Source of the DNA: Escherichia coli
GTDB lineage: Bacteria; Pseudomonadota; Gammaproteobacteria; Enterobacterales; Enterobacteriaceae
Assembly: GCF_024700885.2 (NCBI RefSeq)
Contig: NZ_CP117016.1
Length of the DNA: 64,000 nt
Direction: 5' to 3' (one strand)
How positions within the stretch are numbered: the first letter of the stretch is position 1; every line of letters begins with the position of its first letter. The notes under the pieces are model-generated. The model saw only the letters and a program-made list of their open reading frames with translations. It had not been told where the DNA came from and did no database searches. The translations under genes and the position numbers were made by a program. Below, one piece after another: positions 19,606 to 33,004 of the stretch.

Positions 19606-19692
19606 TGGTGCGAGGGGGGGGACTTGAACCCCCACGTCCGTAAGGACACTAACACCTGAAGCTAGCGCGTCTACCAATTCCGCCACCTTCGC
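19606..19692 (-). tRNA. leuV: tRNA-Leu (anticodon CAG)
   Basis: 87-nt minus-strand tRNA: GCGAAGGTGGCGGAATTGGTAGACGCGCTAGCTTCAGGTGTTAGTGTCCTTACGGACGTGGGGGTTCAAGTCCCCCCCCTCGCACCA, with long variable arm and encoded CCA. Confidence 0.95.
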
Positions 19693-19726
19693 ACAGTCAT
19701 CTTACTTTTTTTGATATCGCCTCGTT

Positions 19727-19813
19727 TGGTGCGAGGGGGGGGACTTGAACCCCCACGTCCGTAAGAACACTAACACCTGAAGCTAGCGCGTCTACCAATT
19801 CCGCCACCTTCGC
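19727..19813 (-). tRNA. leuP: tRNA-Leu (anticodon CAG), variant copy
   Basis: Same 87-nt tRNA with one substitution in the variable arm (plus strand gtaagaac instead of gtaaggac). Confidence 0.93.
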
Positions 19814-19841
19814 CCAGTGCGAGCAATATCAACGTGGTTTT

Positions 19842-19928
19842 TGGTGCGAGGGGGGGGACTTGAACCCCCACGTCCGTAAGGACACTAACACCTGAAGCTA
19901 GCGCGTCTACCAATTCCGCCACCTTCGC
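19842..19928 (-). tRNA. leuQ: tRNA-Leu (anticodon CAG)
   Basis: Third tandem copy, identical to copy 1; first transcribed of the minus-strand leuQPV operon. Confidence 0.95.
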
Positions 19929-23268: not shown

Positions 23269-24486
23269 ATGGCGCTGTCTGATGCGTGGTTGCGTTCAGT
23301 CGTTGGAAAGGAACGTGATAAGGTTTTGGTTAAATCCGATCGTGATGGTCTGTCTGTCAGAGTATCACCGAAAGGTCGCGTAGTGTTCCAATATCGTTAT
23401 CAATGGGCAGGGAAAGGTGAGCGCCTTGATATCGGAACTTACCCGGCAACTGGATTAAAAGAGGCCAGAGAAGAAGTTATCCGTCTCCGTGGTGAACTCG
23501 AGTCAAACCGCAATCCACGATTAGTCAGGCAGGCTGAAAAACGAAAAGCTACTGAAGCCATGACGGTAGAGTCTGTGATCCGTGCCTGGTATGAAGCATA
23601 TTGTGTAAAAAATAAAAAAGGTTCTGAACAGATACTCCGCTCGTTTGAGCTGCACCTGTTCTCTAAAATCGGGAATATCCCTCACGATGCAGCTACATTG
23701 CATGATTGGTTAGAAGTCCTGGAGCCTCTTAGCACTAAGACTCCAGCAATAGCAGACCGATTGCTAATTAACGCAAAGCAGGCCCATGTCTGGGCGTATA
23801 AGAGAAAGCTCATTGAAACTCGCCCACTGTCGGATATCACGGGTAAAGATATGGATATCCGTAAAGGTCAGAAGAAACGGTTTCTGACACATGATGAAAT
23901 TAAAATCCTTTATGCTGCGATCGATGGTTCTCGAATGGTTCCTAAATACCGGGCCTTCATTAAACTATTGCTGCATTTTGGCTGCCGTAGTTCAGAGCTA
24001 ATTACCGCCAGGGTGGACGATTTTGATTTCATTAATAAAGTATGGACTGTACCACCAGAACGACATAAGACTGGGGAGATAACAGGCGAACCGCTAAAGC
24101 GGCCCATTATTGAACCGGTTGAAGAGCTTATAAAGTACGCTATTTCTATGAACAATGGTTCCGATATGCTTTTTACTAAGGAAGGAAGCAGGGAACCCGT
24201 TGGTCGGACATCATTGCAGTCGCTGCCTTACAATTTAATGCAGTACGCATGGCGGCGTTTGGGGTATCAATTCCCTCATTGGTCTCTTCATGATTTGAGG
24301 CGAACAGCACGAACAAACTTTTCTGATCTTACTGCGCCTCATATTGCAGAAATAATGCTAGGTCATAAACTGCCAGGGGTATGGCAGGTTTATGACAAGA
24401 GCGATTATTTAGATGAACAGCGTAAAGCTTACCAGGCATGGTGGGAGAGAGTTGAATCGATAGTTACTTGTACTTGTTCAGACTAG
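23269..24486 (+). CDS. int: tyrosine site-specific integrase
   Basis: 405-aa ORF; C-terminal catalytic region with HDLRRTARTN and LGHKLPGVWQVYD (conserved R, H-x-x-R and Tyr); GGTGAG RBS. Confidence 0.9.
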   Translation: MALSDAWLRSVVGKERDKVLVKSDRDGLSVRVSPKGRVVFQYRYQWAGKGERLDIGTYPATGLKEAREEVIRLRGELESNRNPRLVRQAEKRKATEAMTVESVIRAWYEAYCVKNKKGSEQILRSFELHLFSKIGNIPHDAATLHDWLEVLEPLSTKTPAIADRLLINAKQAHVWAYKRKLIETRPLSDITGKDMDIRKGQKKRFLTHDEIKILYAAIDGSRMVPKYRAFIKLLLHFGCRSSELITARVDDFDFINKVWTVPPERHKTGEITGEPLKRPIIEPVEELIKYAISMNNGSDMLFTKEGSREPVGRTSLQSLPYNLMQYAWRRLGYQFPHWSLHDLRRTARTNFSDLTAPHIAEIMLGHKLPGVWQVYDKSDYLDEQRKAYQAWWERVESIVTCTCSD

Positions 24487-24619
24487 AACTGACATTTTGC
24501 ATAGGCAGAACGCAATTATGCATATTGCGGTATAATCCCCTTCTTAAAACTGTAAGAACTGCTTGCTAATCCTTGCAGTTTTTGATTATAACATTTTTAT
24601 TTGTTTATTAGGATTTTTG

Positions 24620-26752
24620 ATGGAACTGTTACAGGAACACGGGGCGATACTTAAAGTTGTAATCATGCCTACTACTGGGGAACAAACCATAATCCAAGGT
24701 TTCGATACTGGCCTCCTCAACCCAGAGATATCCAACATTCTTTTTTTATTGGCCAAAACACCAAAAGAAATTAGTGAGATTTTTGTCAATGAAAATGATA
24801 ACTTTCAGCCTACTCTAAGCGGGCTAAATCCTATTTTTTTAATATCTAAAGAAAATCTTGAAAAAATACCAGATATTTATCAAACGCCATTTTGCTTAAT
24901 TTTTTGTGCTAAAGAAGATTTTTCGTATGTTTGTGCTTTAAAAAAACATTTTGCTATACCACCTATAATTTGTTGCAATTCTAAACGCGCTGATCTACCA
25001 CTTAATAAGATTAATAGTATATACTCATTTGATAAGGTGCTCTTCTCTCGGTTGAAATTCATTGAGGATAAAATAAGAAAAAATCACAGTGAAAAGAAAA
25101 TATCAACGAAGTTGAAGCGAAGAGGGGCTTTATTTAATAAATCACCTTGGAGATCGACGCTTAACAATTCAACACTACCCAATGAGTTGTTAATTGAATC
25201 ACTTGGCTATATGCTATCTCCACCAAAAAGAATTAAAGATGGTAGTAGCAAAAGAGAGTTTATAGAAATAATACTTCATAGCGTTGATGCATACACCGAA
25301 TGTTTAAAGGAATTAGATATACCACTTCCAACGGAAGTCTTACTTTTTGCTCCGGGTATGCACTCTTTTTTATATGATAAAAATAATGACTTTTATGAGT
25401 TAATAACGGAAAATTTATCCACAATTGAGAAAAAATTCCTTATTGATGGAGTGTTGAGGAATCCAGGCTATTCTGGAATTAGACTTGATATAAATTCAGA
25501 TAGAAAAGAACTTTTTAAAAGTCCTGCTTTCCGTTACCTCACCTCACTAAGACGAGCTGAAATGCGATTAACAACAGCTGCGATTACTTTATTTAGCATA
25601 AATAAAAAAATCCCAGCAATAAGATTGCCAAATGCAATAAATCATTACTCCAATTATTTGAAAAATCTTGAAGATCTTGCAACTTCTTCTGGGATAAATA
25701 GTGAAGCATTCATCACTAAATCTAAAGCATTCAATACTGTTATTCGAAGAGCCCTTGGTTGCAAGTTGAGAACATATATAAGTAAAAACTATAGCGATTT
25801 GTCCTTTGTTTGTGATGTACCATTGGATTGGATTAGGTTTAATAACATACCTATAATGTTCAGTCATGAGATATCAAGAATAAATGCTACGCCTGGTAAC
25901 GTTCTTCTACAGAGCGCCTCTGCTTTTCCGCGCGTTTTAGTAAAAGCATCTGAGTTGAGAAAGGTTTTAGTTATACGTTCTTTTGAGCCTGATGATCACT
26001 TAAAGTTCATATTAGAGAACGCAATTGAGATATTTAAAAAACAGATGCCAGATCTTGATTGCGAGATTATTGATGTTAGATCGAAAGCTGAGTTTATTGA
26101 TGCTCTAAATCAATATCAAGGTCATATTCTTGTTATGGATTGTCATGGAAACCATGATGGCAATGGGAGTCATGGATGGTTAATAATAGGTGAGGATAAA
26201 GTGGACACTTGGAGTTTGAGAAAAATAGCAAGAATTCCTCCTATCGTAATTCTGAGTGCATGTTTAACATCTGCCCTAAGTGGTTCTCATGCCTCTGTTG
26301 CTAATGGCTTCGTTATAAGTGGTGCATTAAGTGTCATCGGAACATTACTGCCTGTAAATGCGATAGACTCTGCTGTTTTTGTAAGTCGGTTGATCTACCG
26401 GTTTTACGAGTTTCCTTCGACGCTATCTACAAATTTTACACATGTTAATGTAAGGCTTTTTCTTTCTGTTTTTCTTAGGATGTCCTATGCAAGCGATTTA
26501 ATAAGAGGATTTTTATCTGAAGATTTGATACCGAATAATTCATGGAAGAAAGATGCAGTTGATATTAACATGTATATAAACATGCTTCACCATGATTGGT
26601 ATGATTATGTAATTAACAAATTGACGATGTTAACGGGGCTCACGAAAAAAGATGTACTTGATTTTATCGATAGAAAATTATTCATAACCGAAACTATGTG
26701 CTATAGCCAAATTGGATTTCCAGATGCAATCACAATTAGTCTTAAAGATTGA
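24620..26752 (+). CDS. large AT-rich cargo protein with C-terminal caspase-like (CHAT-type) His/Cys protease signature; candidate defence protein
   Basis: ATG at 24620 (AGGA 6 nt upstream) gives ~710 aa. C-terminal region HILVMDCHGNHDGNGSHGWLIIGE...IPPIVILSACLTSALSGSH...GALSVIGTLLPVNAIDSAVFVSRLIYRFY has the His (HG) then Cys (SAC) spacing of clan-CD peptidases. N-terminal ~500 aa unassigned. Confidence 0.7.
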   Translation: MELLQEHGAILKVVIMPTTGEQTIIQGFDTGLLNPEISNILFLLAKTPKEISEIFVNENDNFQPTLSGLNPIFLISKENLEKIPDIYQTPFCLIFCAKEDFSYVCALKKHFAIPPIICCNSKRADLPLNKINSIYSFDKVLFSRLKFIEDKIRKNHSEKKISTKLKRRGALFNKSPWRSTLNNSTLPNELLIESLGYMLSPPKRIKDGSSKREFIEIILHSVDAYTECLKELDIPLPTEVLLFAPGMHSFLYDKNNDFYELITENLSTIEKKFLIDGVLRNPGYSGIRLDINSDRKELFKSPAFRYLTSLRRAEMRLTTAAITLFSINKKIPAIRLPNAINHYSNYLKNLEDLATSSGINSEAFITKSKAFNTVIRRALGCKLRTYISKNYSDLSFVCDVPLDWIRFNNIPIMFSHEISRINATPGNVLLQSASAFPRVLVKASELRKVLVIRSFEPDDHLKFILENAIEIFKKQMPDLDCEIIDVRSKAEFIDALNQYQGHILVMDCHGNHDGNGSHGWLIIGEDKVDTWSLRKIARIPPIVILSACLTSALSGSHASVANGFVISGALSVIGTLLPVNAIDSAVFVSRLIYRFYEFPSTLSTNFTHVNVRLFLSVFLRMSYASDLIRGFLSEDLIPNNSWKKDAVDINMYINMLHHDWYDYVINKLTMLTGLTKKDVLDFIDRKLFITETMCYSQIGFPDAITISLKD

Positions 26753-28030: not shown

Positions 28031-28563
28031 GCGCATTTGCGTAACTCCGATAACTCGTTAAAACGTTCCATAAACATCCCGTAGGCATGGCCCGGAGCCA
28101 GTGGAATAACTTTGAACATCTCTGTTGCCGGGATACCTTCCAGTACTGGCCAGAAAGAGCCATCATCAAGCCCGAGGTCGCGGCGTTCAGTTGCCAGCAT
28201 GATGAGATCGGCATATTTCACAGGCGTGCTCATAACCGGGGGTAACCCGAATTTCTCACGGATTACGGCGTCTATTTTTTCTTCCATCCGTTTATAGTCA
28301 GGAAGAAGGCGTTTCAGTGGCGCGGGGATGTCCTGACAATACGCTTCTGTTGCATCATGCATTAACGCTTCAAAAGCAAACTCCTCCGGAACCAGTTTGC
28401 TGCAAAGCACCGCATGTTGGGCGACGCTGTAGAAGTGTGAAAGATGACCGGCAAAGCGACAGATATTTGAAAGGGAAACTGCGATATCGTTAATCACGAT
28501 GTCGTCTTTATTTATCCTGTCATAATAAAAATGCTTCCCGGAAAAAGTTTTAATAAATGACAT
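28027..28563 (-). CDS. HD-domain phosphohydrolase (YfdR-like 5'-deoxynucleotidase)
   Basis: ATG at 28563 preceded by GGAGAA; 178 aa; HD motif residues in RFAGHLSHFYSVAQHAV...LMHDATEAY. Confidence 0.75.
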   Translation of the reverse strand: MSFIKTFSGKHFYYDRINKDDIVINDIAVSLSNICRFAGHLSHFYSVAQHAVLCSKLVPEEFAFEALMHDATEAYCQDIPAPLKRLLPDYKRMEEKIDAVIREKFGLPPVMSTPVKYADLIMLATERRDLGLDDGSFWPVLEGIPATEMFKVIPLAPGHAYGMFMERFNELSELRKCA

Positions 28564-28657
28564 TTTGTTCTCCACTTTATATGCGCTGCACCGCGCTGAA
28601 TTTTGGTTAAAGAAAACCCTCGCCATCAGGCGATTATTGAGTTAATTACGTTTCCAT

Positions 28658-28679
28658 AAATGCCCCCGCAGGGGCATTT
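28658..28679. other. perfect 10-bp-stem hairpin between early-left genes
   Basis: aaatgccccc-gc-aggggcattt; it shares the 13-nt string tccataaatgccc with a site at 30300-30312. Confidence 0.35.
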
Positions 28680-28691
28680 GCAGTAATGAAA

Positions 28692-29516
28692 TCAGGCGGT
28701 GAAAGTACCAATAAAGGTTTCTACTTTGCTGTCTTTGAATTTTTCAACAAGCAGATCACGAAATTCGTTAGCCATTTCTTCCTGCACTGCTTCCAGCTGA
28801 ATAATGCGCAGAACCAGTACAGGGCGATCACCAGTGATAATGCTGAGGCGTAATTTAAACGGACGTTCTTTCAGGCCTTCAAACGGAACGCATTTAAACT
28901 CAAATGCTACTGGCATAATGTCTTTGGTTTTCGCTTCGACAGACTCCATCAGAGAGCGTTTGCCGCTGAAGTCATTGTCTTCAAAATCAGCGGTCTGGTT
29001 TGCTTCAATCGTGATTTTACGGACCGCCGCAGCCGCTTTTGTTGCCTGAATGGCGTCACCATTAGCATCAAAGCCCACAAGGTAGTCGGCCCAGTCTTCA
29101 ATCCATTCTGCCAGTGACTTCTGGGAGTTACGCTCGCCGTTAACAGACAACAGGGCAGAGAACGGTGCTGTCTTTTTCAGTTTGAGAGTGGCGGTGTTAT
29201 CTGCGTGACCTGGTTCATCAATAGTACCCAGGTTAAGCACACTGACGGCTCGCATATTATCAGCATCGATAAAGCAGCGGGTGCCTTCATCTGCAAGATC
29301 TTTAGAATAACGGGTAAAGTCATCGATGCTGGCAGTGGAAAGCGCACCACGGAAACGGAAGCGATTTAAATTAAATTTTTCCAGATCATGAATGCGGAAA
29401 TTCTCAGGCAATGCCACAGCATCGGCACCAATCTTACTGATAATTTCATTAACACCCTGAGCAGAAATAAGGGCATGGATTTGATTAATTGCGGTTGCGT
29501 CTAAGTTCTGAGACAT
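28692..29516 (-). CDS. phage protein, YfdQ-like (DUF2303-type)
   Basis: 274-aa ORF ([21 protein letters not shown]...), same length and order as CPS-53 yfdQ next to the HD-domain gene. Confidence 0.65.
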
Positions 29517-29581: not shown

Positions 29582-29944
29582 TTAACGACCTGCTGCGCGG
29601 AGTTTTCCGTCAGGTTCACCGGCAAGAGTCAGTAATTGTCCCTGGTCTTCCTGCAGAATAGTCAGGCGACCACCGCGATTGACATACATCGGCGTTTCGG
29701 TGGTGTCTTCTTCGGAAATTTTCCCGCGGTTAGTCGGGCGAACATATGAGAGTTTGTGTTTGATTTTTACACGGTTCTCATCAAACGGTTCGATTTCCAG
29801 GTTGAGCGAGACCTTACCTTTGGTTTTCGTGTTCATCACACCGGAAGCGACTTCACTGAGAACAGCGCCGATTTTGGTTTCAAATACGCCGCCGTCCAGC
29901 TCCCCGATAAATGCCTGCACATCAGTACTGCGTTCGCTAGCCAT
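29582..29944 (-). CDS. phage hypothetical protein (YfdP-like), first gene of the early-left operon
   Basis: ATG at 29944 preceded by GAGGAG gives 120 aa (MASERSTDVQAFIGELDGGVFETK...); the longer listed ORF 29582..30175 is an upstream extension. Confidence 0.6.
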   Translation of the reverse strand: MASERSTDVQAFIGELDGGVFETKIGAVLSEVASGVMNTKTKGKVSLNLEIEPFDENRVKIKHKLSYVRPTNRGKISEEDTTETPMYVNRGGRLTILQEDQGQLLTLAGEPDGKLRAAGR

Positions 29945-29992
29945 TTTGCTGCTCCTCATCATATCGACCCTGCAAGGTCGGTTGGTTTCTCC

Positions 29993-30127
29993 ACAAAACA
30001 GAGAAGAACACCTGCGGTGGCAGCCGCCCGGATGGATTGGGTTATGAGCCCGTCGTCCGGTGATGCCCTTCTCTGTTTTGTAAAAAGAGCGGTACCAGCC
30101 GGAAGCAAGTGTACAAACTGGTACCGC
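29993..30127 (-). other. two tandem stem-loops in the pL-proximal leader (candidate structured RNA element)
   Basis: SL-I has a 14-bp perfect stem, acaaaacagagaag (29993-30006) pairing with cttctctgttttgt (30068-30081). SL-II has a 10-bp perfect stem, gcggtaccag (30089-30098) pairing with ctggtaccgc (30118-30127). Neither is followed by a U-run on either strand. Confidence 0.35.
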
Positions 30128-30574
30128 CAAAGCAGTGGCTGTTGTGGTGGGGTTGTCACTCAGGCGTATGGTCAACCTGACAATCCGGTGTCCTCAACGG
30201 GGAAAGAGTAACCCCGCCATACTTACCGCCGCGCCATTTCGCGGATTACCACAACGCTGAGAGCACTTAGCCAGTTACGGCACCACACTTTGTCGCGGTT
30301 CCATAAATGCCCTCATCGTTGCACCCTGGTCTCTTCCCAGGCGTCAAACCGGATCGCCACGCTGGTTAGGCGTCTTATCAGCATCATCATTGACTTGCAC
30401 ATTCCGGCTACCTGGTTTGTTTGCCCGAGCAAGGAGTGGATTGTCCCCTTTAACGTCCCCAGACCGCTAACGACGCATGTGCCATACGCCGTGTTACAAC
30501 CAAATTTAGTTTAATCTTGCCTGTGTTATGTTTCTTTTAGATACATTATGTATCTCAAGGGTACATTGTCAAGT

Positions 30575-30599
30575 ATAAAAAAACCTGCCGAAGCAGGTT
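30575..30599 (-). terminator. rho-independent terminator of the cI transcript
   Basis: aacctgc-cgaa-gcaggtt hairpin followed on the minus strand by a U-run, just downstream of the cI stop. Confidence 0.65.
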
Positions 30600-30610
30600 A
30601 TAAATATTGA

Positions 30611-31607: not shown

Positions 31608-32171
31608 ATGAGGCTAACCGTGGGTAAGTATCACTGGAAAGTAGAAAAACAGCCTGAGTGGTACGTGAAAGCTGTCAGAAAAACTATCGCAGCGTTGCCG
31701 GGTGGTTACGCTGAAGCAGCTGACTGGCTGGATGTAACAGAGAACGCATTATTTAACCGCCTTCGTGCCGATGGCGATCAGATTTTCCCGCTGGGATGGG
31801 CAATGGTTTTACAGCGCGCGGCTGGCACTCACTACATTGCGGATGCTGTCGCACAGTCTGCTGGTGGGGTGTTCGTATCGCTTCCTGAAATTGAGGAAGT
31901 AGAGAACGCCGATATAAACCAGCGCCTGCTGGAAGTCATCGAACAGATCGGGAATTACTCAAAGCAGATTCGTTCGGCAATCGAAGATGGGGTCGTGGAG
32001 CCACACGAGCAGACAGCAATTAATGATGAGTTGTATCTGTCAATTTCGAAGCTCCAGGAGCATGCAGCACTGGTCTACAAAATCTTTTGCGCTCCAGAAA
32101 AGAGTGACGCCCGCGAGTGTGCAGCTCCGGGCGTCGTGGCGTTTTGTGTCTGTGGAGAAACTAACGCATGA
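31608..32171 (+). CDS. CII-like / YdaT-like early regulatory protein
   Basis: 187-aa ORF in the cII position immediately after cro; family assignment is by position and weak resemblance only. Confidence 0.45.
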   Translation: MRLTVGKYHWKVEKQPEWYVKAVRKTIAALPGGYAEAADWLDVTENALFNRLRADGDQIFPLGWAMVLQRAAGTHYIADAVAQSAGGVFVSLPEIEEVENADINQRLLEVIEQIGNYSKQIRSAIEDGVVEPHEQTAINDELYLSISKLQEHAALVYKIFCAPEKSDARECAAPGVVAFCVCGETNA

Positions 32172-33004
32172 ACAGTTTAACGGCAAATAACCGTTTGTCG
32201 CAACAGCTGGTGGTCAGCGTCGCTGAACACCTGTTGTTACGGCATGAATGCAGATTACCAAATCACCTGGCTGTAAGTAACCACAGAGAACTTTACCTGA
32301 CTGTGGGGGGCGAGTTGTGCAAGAACTTAACCGCTGGTTTCGTGACGGAAGAGGGCTTTATGTCCATGTTATTCGTTGGGAGCCAGAAACACAGCGCGTT
32401 ATCTATCTTCGCAAAGACTACCCGCATGAGTGCTTTAGTCCTTTGTGGAAATTCAGGCGTGATTTTGTTGAGTGTGAAGGACCACCAGCACATTGATTCT
32501 GCCATTCCGGGACGTTACACTGTTCAGGCACCTTATAAAGCGGGTGTCGGGATTGGCGTCCTGGAATTGCATACGGCGACAATTGGCGCGTTAGCGTCTT
32601 TTTTGTTGCTACAACTCAGCTATACCCAAATTATGGTGGGCTGGGTGGGGGCACCGAAAGGTGCGCCGGTTTCCGTATGCGCCGGTTACGCCAACCCTGC
32701 TCAGTTCACCACCAGCGAAATTGGCGTTTCCGGTGGTGGAAGTTATCCATTGCATACGGAGGCTGCCATCATGGCTACTGTCCCAGCCCTCTCTCGTCTG
32801 AATGATGAAGACTTACATAAACTCAGTTATGTAACAACTGCACTACGTGCTCTGCGCAAGGTAACTCTTTCGGATCCGCAGGCGCATCAGGTTTTGGTAG
32901 AAACCCTTCTTAACTTGCAGGCTGAACGTATTCGTCTGGCGGATAAGGCTAATTTTCATATTCACCGTCTCCTGAATATCAGCGGAGGGCATCGTCATGC
33001 TTAA
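32168..33004 (+). CDS. phage hypothetical protein
   Basis: 278-aa ORF coupled to neighbours by ATGA overlap; no recognisable domain by eye. Confidence 0.45.
   Translation: MNSLTANNRLSQQLVVSVAEHLLLRHECRLPNHLAVSNHRELYLTVGGELCKNLTAGFVTEEGFMSMLFVGSQKHSALSIFAKTTRMSALVLCGNSGVILLSVKDHQHIDSAIPGRYTVQAPYKAGVGIGVLELHTATIGALASFLLLQLSYTQIMVGWVGAPKGAPVSVCAGYANPAQFTTSEIGVSGGGSYPLHTEAAIMATVPALSRLNDEDLHKLSYVTTALRALRKVTLSDPQAHQVLVETLLNLQAERIRLADKANFHIHRLLNISGGHRHA

Follow-up and report, generated by a model that had tools for sequence, protein, structure and literature searches.

The 64,000-nucleotide (nt) stretch of Escherichia coli DNA analysed here (the window; contig NZ_CP117016.1) carries a lambdoid prophage in which a long and apparently empty gap separates the gene of a cI-like repressor from yfdP. 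The leader region in this gap is 100% identical to that of phage Ayreon and to leaders in many E. coli chromosomes. We consider it probable that the gap belongs to an SfV/Ayreon-type lambdoid prophage and constitutes the noncoding 5' part of the transcript from the early-left promoter (pL). This part is best explained, with the same confidence, as a chain of independently conserved RNA cassettes which are common to and shuffled among many enterobacterial temperate phages. In the direction of transcription the cassettes are C1, C2, B, a DicF-type terminator hairpin with its U-run, and a tRNA-like three-way junction termed A1. Each of them is conserved elsewhere in the same orientation and with base-pair-preserving changes.

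The locus between repressor gene and yfdP

All features of the locus lie on the minus strand and are given in the order of transcription, with the evidence in brackets:

31285-30611, minus: gene of a LexA/S24-family cI-like repressor
30582..30599, minus: intrinsic terminator of the repressor gene (scan: 7-bp stem, loop of 4, then TTTTTATA)
30540..30572, minus: pL-like promoter (-35 TTGACA at 30572-30567, -10 CATAAT at 30550-30545)
30322..30496, minus: C1, a structured RNA of about 175 nt (covariance-model match, compensatory pairs)
30251..30322, minus: C2, a long hairpin (CAACGAUGAGGGCA.../...UGCUCUCAGCGUUG; fold of -33.4 kcal/mol, z = -3.0)
30141..30255, minus: B, the element that precedes DicF-type small RNAs (sRNAs), closed by GUUGUGGU/ACCACAAC (alignment with DicF upstream regions)
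30082..30128, minus: DicF-type Rho-independent terminator hairpin with 13 bp, a 15-nt loop and U5 (fold, DicF alignment)
29990..30084, minus: A1, the basal helix of about 23 bp of a tRNA-like element (fold, homologous copies)
29945..29981, minus: start region of yfdP (small hairpin at 29981-29966, Shine-Dalgarno sequence GAGGAG at 29956-29951, ATG at 29947-29945)

Both the terminator of the repressor gene and the pL-like site are likewise annotated, as terminator and promoter, in phage Ayreon. In a promoter scan the arrangement TTGACA-16-CATAAT (30572-30545) matched a sigma-70-like promoter at 11 of 12 positions. A palindrome search revealed a perfect 15-bp palindrome, GATACATTATGTATC, at 30540-30554, which overlaps the promoter and represents a putative operator. 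Transcription would start near 30538. The gene yfdP was annotated by the Prokaryotic Genome Annotation Pipeline (PGAP) in an identical prophage, and yfdQ and yfdR follow on the minus strand.

A preliminary description of this DNA had proposed a pL leader of about 570 nt without an N-type gene. The distance from the promoter to yfdP was about 590 nt, in agreement with a long noncoding leader, and the whole leader folded better than shuffled sequences (z = -4.7). The lack of an N-type gene was confirmed as well. The PGAP annotation of the identical prophage contains a Q-type protein as its only antiterminator, and searches with Pfam revealed nothing N-like in the small early open reading frames (ORFs), the two ORFs inside the gap among them. 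The latter (39 aa, minus strand; 74 aa, plus strand) were rejected as coding sequences on the lack of a Pfam match. In other lambdoid loci, no N-like gene was seen in the ORF clusters that recur downstream of C1. With Rfam at permissive E-values nothing was detected in the gap apart from noise matches on the wrong strand. When the gap was compared with phage records by blastn, its separate parts matched different phages that are unrelated to one another.

The two perfect inverted repeats to which the preliminary description had drawn attention were both recovered. With a loop of up to 100 nt allowed, the window contains no other perfect repeat as long as the 14-bp one (29993-30006/30068-30081), while shuffled sequences were expected to contain 0.0. 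The 10-bp repeat (30089-30098/30118-30127) belongs to a class that is not rare by itself, with 12 centres in the window versus 5.5 expected. As detailed below, the 10-bp repeat forms a terminator-type hairpin and the 14-bp repeat the outer part of a longer helix.

Conserved RNA structures of the leader

C1 is the first structured element of the transcript. Its structure was derived by eye and by counting, and pairing was evaluated on 25 representatives and then on 70 distinct homologues aligned to a covariance model. It consists of hairpin H1 (9 bp, GCA loop), helix H2 enclosing the variable hairpin H3, the invariant stretch GGUAGCCGGAAUGUGCAAG, the variable hairpin H4, an H-type pseudoknot (NNGA/UCNN, with the loop YUCACCA, of which CACC pairs with GGUG) and hairpin H6 (5 bp, GAAGAGA loop). 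The window copy matched model R1 from end to end with a score of 141.8 bits, with H1, H2, the 19-mer, the pseudoknot and H6 complete and in this order, and all helices pair. Homologues were collected with the invariant 19-nt word, which retrieved more than 120 IMG/VR contigs and, from these, 99 distinct cores. Pairing was observed in 96-97% of the cells (97% in the 70 distinct homologues), and 14 pairs were compensatory, including one pair of the pseudoknot. Slid controls paired in 26-45%, and 0 of 500 shuffles reached the observed values (shuffle controls here and elsewhere in this analysis ignore the relatedness between sequences, and E-values of covariance models are rough).

The window contains a single C1; with filters switched off, the next best match of the covariance model had an E-value of 1.1. 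One copy per locus was also the rule in the 94 loci inspected. Rfam 15 holds no family for C1, and PGAP leaves it unannotated. A coding function was rejected: the variable hairpins alter their length out of frame, and the variable columns lack codon periodicity on both strands. About a third of complete E. coli genomes (1832 of 5426) contain C1, and 553 of its places are on plasmids. Among species-representative genomes it was confined to Enterobacterales, besides two short contigs of doubtful binning.

The phages that carry C1 are diverse. Matches to its approximately 175 nt were obtained in P1-like phages, in epsilon15-like phages (phiV10, SPN1S) and in many lambdoid phages, and its unpaired blocks are invariant across the P1-, lambda- and epsilon15-like groups. 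In P1, C1 begins 2 nt after tRNA-Ile2 and precedes ban, while the next elements after it in phiV10 and SPN1S are hairpin C2 and tRNA-Arg(UCU), in this order. Genes for tRNAs were located within 1.5 kb of C1 in 33 of 124 loci and every one was on the same strand as C1, which fixes the transcribed strand of C1. This proximity suggests that tRNA-processing enzymes may define the ends of C1. In phiV10, the series C1, C2, tRNA-Arg and DicF-type terminator stands as a unit of its own, with the structural genes around it in the opposite orientation. This argues for the segment from C1 to the terminator being more than a leader, namely a transcription unit for noncoding RNA. A promoter scan upstream of C1 in phiV10 yielded no consensus match.

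C2 follows directly on C1. Its stem is maintained with another loop in phiV10, in SPN1S and in the loci L009, L107 and L149. Long inserts are present in the C2 loop of some leaders, some of them with T-arm-like fragments, and a protein-coding insert was observed in L171. In the IMG/VR contigs L107 and L149 the insert comprises about 120 nt and contains T-arm-like motifs at two places (CUGGUUCAAUUCCAG, UCCGUUCGAUUCGGA). Closing stems may thus act as slots for tRNA-derived cargo.

Element B matches Qin/Rac-like phages as well as a record named Actinobacillus phage. In PhiR42_1, DicF (Rfam, 76.7 bits) is located immediately after B. A DicF-type terminator, i.e. a GGYGG...CYGYC hairpin with a U-run, was present within 130 nt in 94 of the 113 copies of B collected, and these terminators show several differing 'seed' and loop variants. 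The structure of B is compatible with a closed, possibly pseudoknotted fold in which 94% of the positions are paired.

Two observations concern B and its borders. The sequence CGUUGUGG (30248-30262, minus strand) belongs to two stems, as the 3' strand in C2 (CAACG/CGUUG) and as the 5' strand in the closing stem of B (GUUGUGGU/ACCACAAC, with the other side at 30141-30148); the same overlap occurs at the junctions in L015, L097 and L171. The helices of C2 and B partly compete for bases, which would allow alternative folding or a common processing site. Moreover, B (L128 2380-2625; L129 2430-2630) is approximately 85-95% identical between E. coli phages and L128, a record named Actinobacillus phage vB_Apl-pPE4 that also has the duplicated tail CCCCGCCACAACAACCCAUGUUGAUUACCUUUUGGCGGGUAUCC. 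Either B crosses bacterial families or the host assignment of that record is doubtful.

The 10-bp hairpin immediately downstream of B is best read as a DicF-type internal terminator. The preliminary description had stated that neither hairpin is followed by a U-run and that both are therefore no intrinsic terminators. On the transcribed minus strand, however, the 10-bp repeat extends to a stem of 13 bp (30128-30088) followed by C-UUUUU-A, with the U-run at 30086-30082. On the strand that is transcribed, a U-run thus comes immediately after a G+C-rich stem, and for this hairpin the statement is wrong. The hairpin folded with -21.2 kcal/mol (z = -3.75 versus shuffles). A run of at least 5 U follows the hairpin in all 106 copies of the arrangement present in the window. 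Compensatory changes affected 5 of 11 hairpin pairs in 17 diverse homologues of this arrangement.

DicF is an sRNA of 53 nt which is reported to arise from early Rho-independent termination inside the ydfABC-dicF-dicB operon and from RNase E processing, with an alternative end created by RNase III (PMC9438474). In the dicB operon and in the window alike, a noncoding RNA is positioned inside a repressor-controlled early-left operon with B directly upstream. The 3' hairpin starts with UUUGGCGGUAyCAGUUU and ends with CCGCyCUUUUU, so that the opening segment, the closing CCGC and the U-run of DicF, and with them the GGCGG...CCGCC terminator, are retained. A three-way alignment showed that B is followed in the window by a shortened DicF-like segment which lacks the first 20 nt or so of DicF, and the succession of B and hairpin corresponds to the arrangement of B and DicF in Qin-like phages. 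In either case the RNA would act through early Rho-independent termination in the operon combined with read-through into the downstream genes. The earlier fallback proposal of an sRNA came close to the truth for the 10-bp hairpin, given its homology to the terminator hairpin at the 3' end of DicF, a prophage sRNA. The stem in the window differs from that of DicF in its loop and in being a longer perfect duplex.

The 14-bp repeat had been described as a stem-loop. The stem was confirmed, but it does not form a simple stem-loop: the repeat is the outer part of a helix of about 23 bp which closes a 49-nt junction with two arms. Arm 1 comprises 30060-30028 with the apical sequence GGGCUCAUAACCC (30051-30039), and arm 2 comprises 30027-30014. 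The fold of the region 29988-30084 had an energy of -48.1 kcal/mol with z = -6.65 versus shuffles. A search with a 23-nt word retrieved more than 120 contigs with 126 copies of A1 in two architectures. Type I, the form present in the window, comprises 106 copies in which the DicF-type terminator is followed by a helix of about 20-23 bp closing arms 1 and 2; arm 1 has 7 bp, an internal loop, a GGG/CCC stem and the loop CUCAUAA. In the 20 copies of type II the same arms are closed by GGCCUG/CAGGCC, followed by A/G-CCA (NCCA), to give an element of 70-71 nt. Type II is situated downstream of Q and, in 18 of the 20 copies, exactly 6 nt after a tRNA gene for Arg, Thr, Met or Asn. The interior of the hairpin in the window matches Klebsiella and other phages, in which the match abuts an annotated tRNA.

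Folding, alignments and pair counts agreed on the two-armed junction with the arm 1 sequence GGGCUCAUAAYCC and the closing helix, and compensatory changes were observed in the long stem and in arm 2. As a type I element the window copy has the helix of about 23 bp and no CCA, so that the acceptor-like stem and NCCA end of type II are absent. ARAGORN detected no tRNA in the window form or in the type II form, even with relaxed thresholds or in mitochondrial mode, and the Rfam tRNA model had no match in A1. The apical sequence GGGCUCAUAACCC was invariant in all 126 copies, in a stretch that includes the seed word used for their collection.

The leader as a probable chain of RNA cassettes

Leaders that contain both C1 and the tRNA-like element have the same order of cassettes, with swaps. 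B is replaced by tRNA-Arg in L009 and by another module in L015, L107 and L149. The homology between leaders starts at the same point after differing immunity-specific promoters. The cassettes are bracketed by the complementary words GUUGUGG...CCACAAC, which are shared by STnc100-like modules. The prophage sRNAs STnc100/PasD (RF02076) represent another cassette of such arrays: STnc100-like matches adjoin B/DicF in SfV, PhiR42_1, the Actinobacillus record and P1 and are bracketed by the same GUGGUG...CACCAC junction words, although no match was detected inside the gap. An STnc100-like match weaker than these (23.1 bits, E = 0.097) was located downstream of yfdQ at 28520-28700 on the minus strand, between yfdQ and yfdR; the early-left operon may contain further RNA cassettes. 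The ban operon of P1 (L003 782-883, 3191-3286) includes an annotated 'dicF-like region', three tRNAs, an STnc100-like match and C1, after which UUUUCUGGUGAUGAC resembles the 5' seed of DicF. This operon looks like another array of the same cassettes.

Phage RNAs other than tRNAs in or near tRNA clusters include the stable species 1 and 2 RNAs of T4 as well as the large noncoding RNAs GOLLD and ROOL. Similar to C1 and type II A1, these are structured RNAs which abut co-oriented phage tRNA genes, and tRNA-processing enzymes could define their ends. GOLLD and ROOL have families in Rfam and neither matched. C1 differs from all of these RNAs in the lack of sequence or model similarity, in its much smaller size (about 175 nt) and in its confinement to phages of Enterobacterales.

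On induction, pL would drive the synthesis of a noncoding RNA of about 455 nt that would mostly end at 30082-30088. The 10-bp hairpin would serve as an early Rho-independent terminator, like the DicF terminator inside the dicB operon. Host RNases would then cut out stable RNAs, namely C1 and a short DicF-like 3' RNA. Only partial read-through would reach yfdP-yfdQ-yfdR, in a transcript that carries the tRNA-like element on its long duplex. The helix of about 23 bp may act as an RNase III-type processing handle and as a 5' stabiliser, separating the tRNA-like core from the downstream mRNA. In tRNA arrays, the acceptor-like stem and NCCA end, an RNase P-type handle, would take over the role of the long helix.

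Several results weigh against this explanation. The Rfam model of DicF (RF00039, gathering threshold 48 bits) gave the window no score in 29940-30545 even at E <= 10, and the alignment showed that the 5' seed of DicF, the approximately 20-nt part UUUCUGGUGACG, is missing from the window, which leaves a DicF-like regulatory role unproven. In a crude duplex test, complementarity to the ribosome binding site of ftsZ was no better than in shuffles (z = +0.48), whereas canonical DicF was weakly better than shuffles by the same measure. The hairpin loops of 15-19 nt exceed those of typical terminators, and the terminator scan, with its loop limit of 8, made no call. Covariation in B was weak, its sequence being too invariant to prove a structure. 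The homologues were gathered with exact seed words of 19-23 nt, which limits their diversity and makes the invariance near the seeds partly a matter of construction. Finally, the promoter, start site, termination and processing have all been deduced from the nucleotide sequence.

For C1 itself, we tentatively suggest a previously undescribed class of pseudoknotted phage RNA which may act on a host machine common to its carrier phages. It could do so by modifying RNA polymerase in the way of put, so that the downstream terminator is overridden, or as a stable RNA connected with tRNA processing or with defence against tRNA-targeting systems. The pL 'leader' would then be a small noncoding-RNA operon instead of a leader. 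The class and its two possible modes together are a working proposal which we regard as possible rather than probable. No description of C1, B or the tRNA-like element was found in literature on put, STnc100/Pas sRNAs, DicF, EcOnc sRNAs and the P1 transcriptome; the Pas sequences are absent from the text of these publications.

The put RNAs of phage HK022 are known cis-acting antiterminators of about 70 nt with two stems. They bind the zinc-binding domain of the RNA polymerase β' subunit, putL starts at +2/+3 of the pL transcript, and the left and right copies are similar in sequence (PMC9378689). In the HK022 genome we located putL between cI and nun and putR between cro and cII, with the expected similarity to each other. 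The leader of the window resembles this system in that structured RNAs are present in the early transcript of an N-less lambdoid phage. C1 might be viewed as a processive antiterminator in the manner of put or of the Bacillus EAR element, which would allow its own polymerase to pass the DicF-type terminator and later early-left terminators. It is the first structured element after pL, located about 45 nt from the predicted start and upstream of a terminator in a phage without N. It also begins at the same junction behind differing immunity-specific promoters, its orientation always agrees with that of the downstream genes, and its conserved unpaired stretches suggest a macromolecular partner, i.e. 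a host factor common to unrelated phages. We nevertheless regard this function as unlikely. C1 is present once per phage, with no copy in the pR operon. In P1 it is positioned 2.3 kb inside an operon, abutting a tRNA and with no terminator before ban, and in phiV10 it is the first element of a small tRNA unit with a terminator at its end, an arrangement that is more reminiscent of a stable RNA gene. Furthermore, it has no likeness to put in sequence or architecture.

Somewhat less likely still, the cassettes are largely non-functional relics, i.e. tRNA-gene fragments and recombination junctions left by mosaic exchange, with the hairpins as by-products. The mosaic structure of the leader with its recurring junction words GUUGUGG/CCACAAC and the T-arm-like fragments in the C2 loops of other phages would fit such an origin, and a recent preprint, which counts in favour of relics, regards the tRNA-like sequences in the vicinity of prophage sRNAs as what is left of insertion sites. 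Relics would, however, not be expected to retain their pairing through compensatory changes in hundreds of copies, nor unpaired blocks that are invariant across P1-, lambda- and epsilon15-like phages. The exact 6-nt spacing and the NCCA end of type II and the constant strand orientation relative to tRNAs also argue against decay.

Similarly improbable is a specialized role of A1 in which its arm mimics the anticodon stem-loop of the initiator tRNA as a decoy or ligand, for instance of an anticodon nuclease such as VapC or of an initiation factor, while the long stem merely presents the arm. We take CGGGCUCAUAACCC to be equal to the anticodon arm of E. coli initiator tRNA-fMet, which the apical GGGCUCAUAACCC presumably matches over 14 nt. 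The invariance of this apical sequence and the association of the element with phage tRNA genes would be consistent with mimicry. Against it stand the purely inferential nature of the proposal, the overlap of the invariant stretch with the seed word and the failure of ARAGORN to detect a tRNA.

The preliminary description had compared the two perfect hairpins to put and had suggested a search for a second copy downstream of pR. That nascent stem-loops at these positions bind the polymerase, confer terminator resistance and replace N is very improbable: the phage lacks N, and the hairpins are part of the pL transcript and conserved with compensatory changes, but the best match of putL/putR in the gap had E = 19 (blastn versus the window, word size 7), no second copy of any part of the leader was present in the window, including the pR side (self-blast; covariance model of C1), the hairpins are situated about 410-550 nt after the predicted start versus +2/+3 for putL, the first structured element, about 45 nt into the transcript, is C1 with 175 nt and six helices, the 10-bp hairpin is a homologue of the DicF terminator with the U-run of a terminator, and the 14-bp stem closes a tRNA-like junction which elsewhere resides in tRNA arrays downstream of Q and not after early promoters.

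Returning to the chain of cassettes, the 600-nt 'leader' of this common E. coli prophage, apparently empty, is densely filled with RNA modules that are conserved. Early-left expression in this N-less phage group probably depends on read-through of the DicF-type terminator. C1 is a well-supported structured RNA that is absent from Rfam and from genome annotation, and its partner could reveal a new manipulation of the host by phages at induction. Through the chain, the classic DicF arrangement is also connected with a larger repertoire of phage RNA cassettes which are shuffled and mix with tRNA genes.

Other features of the window

Three tandem host tRNA-Leu(CAG) genes are located at 19606-19928 on the minus strand, approximately 3.3 kb from the integrase of the prophage, and have no relation to the tRNA-like element of the leader.

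In the pR operon, the region 32515-32716 (plus strand) matched the Rfam families C4 antisense RNA (80.7 bits) and isrK RNA (58.9 bits), together with a weak c4-a1b1 target site. The C4/isrK region lies upstream of or within an Ash-family ORF (32168-33004) and looks like an immI antisense control module of the P1/P7 type inside a lambdoid prophage.

An ORF of 729 aa at 24563-26752 (plus strand) encodes a CHAT (caspase-like protease) domain and adjoins the integrase gene (23269-24486). An otherwise identical prophage in another strain has an AIPR-family gene in place of the CHAT ORF. This position looks like a variable slot for cargo or defence genes.

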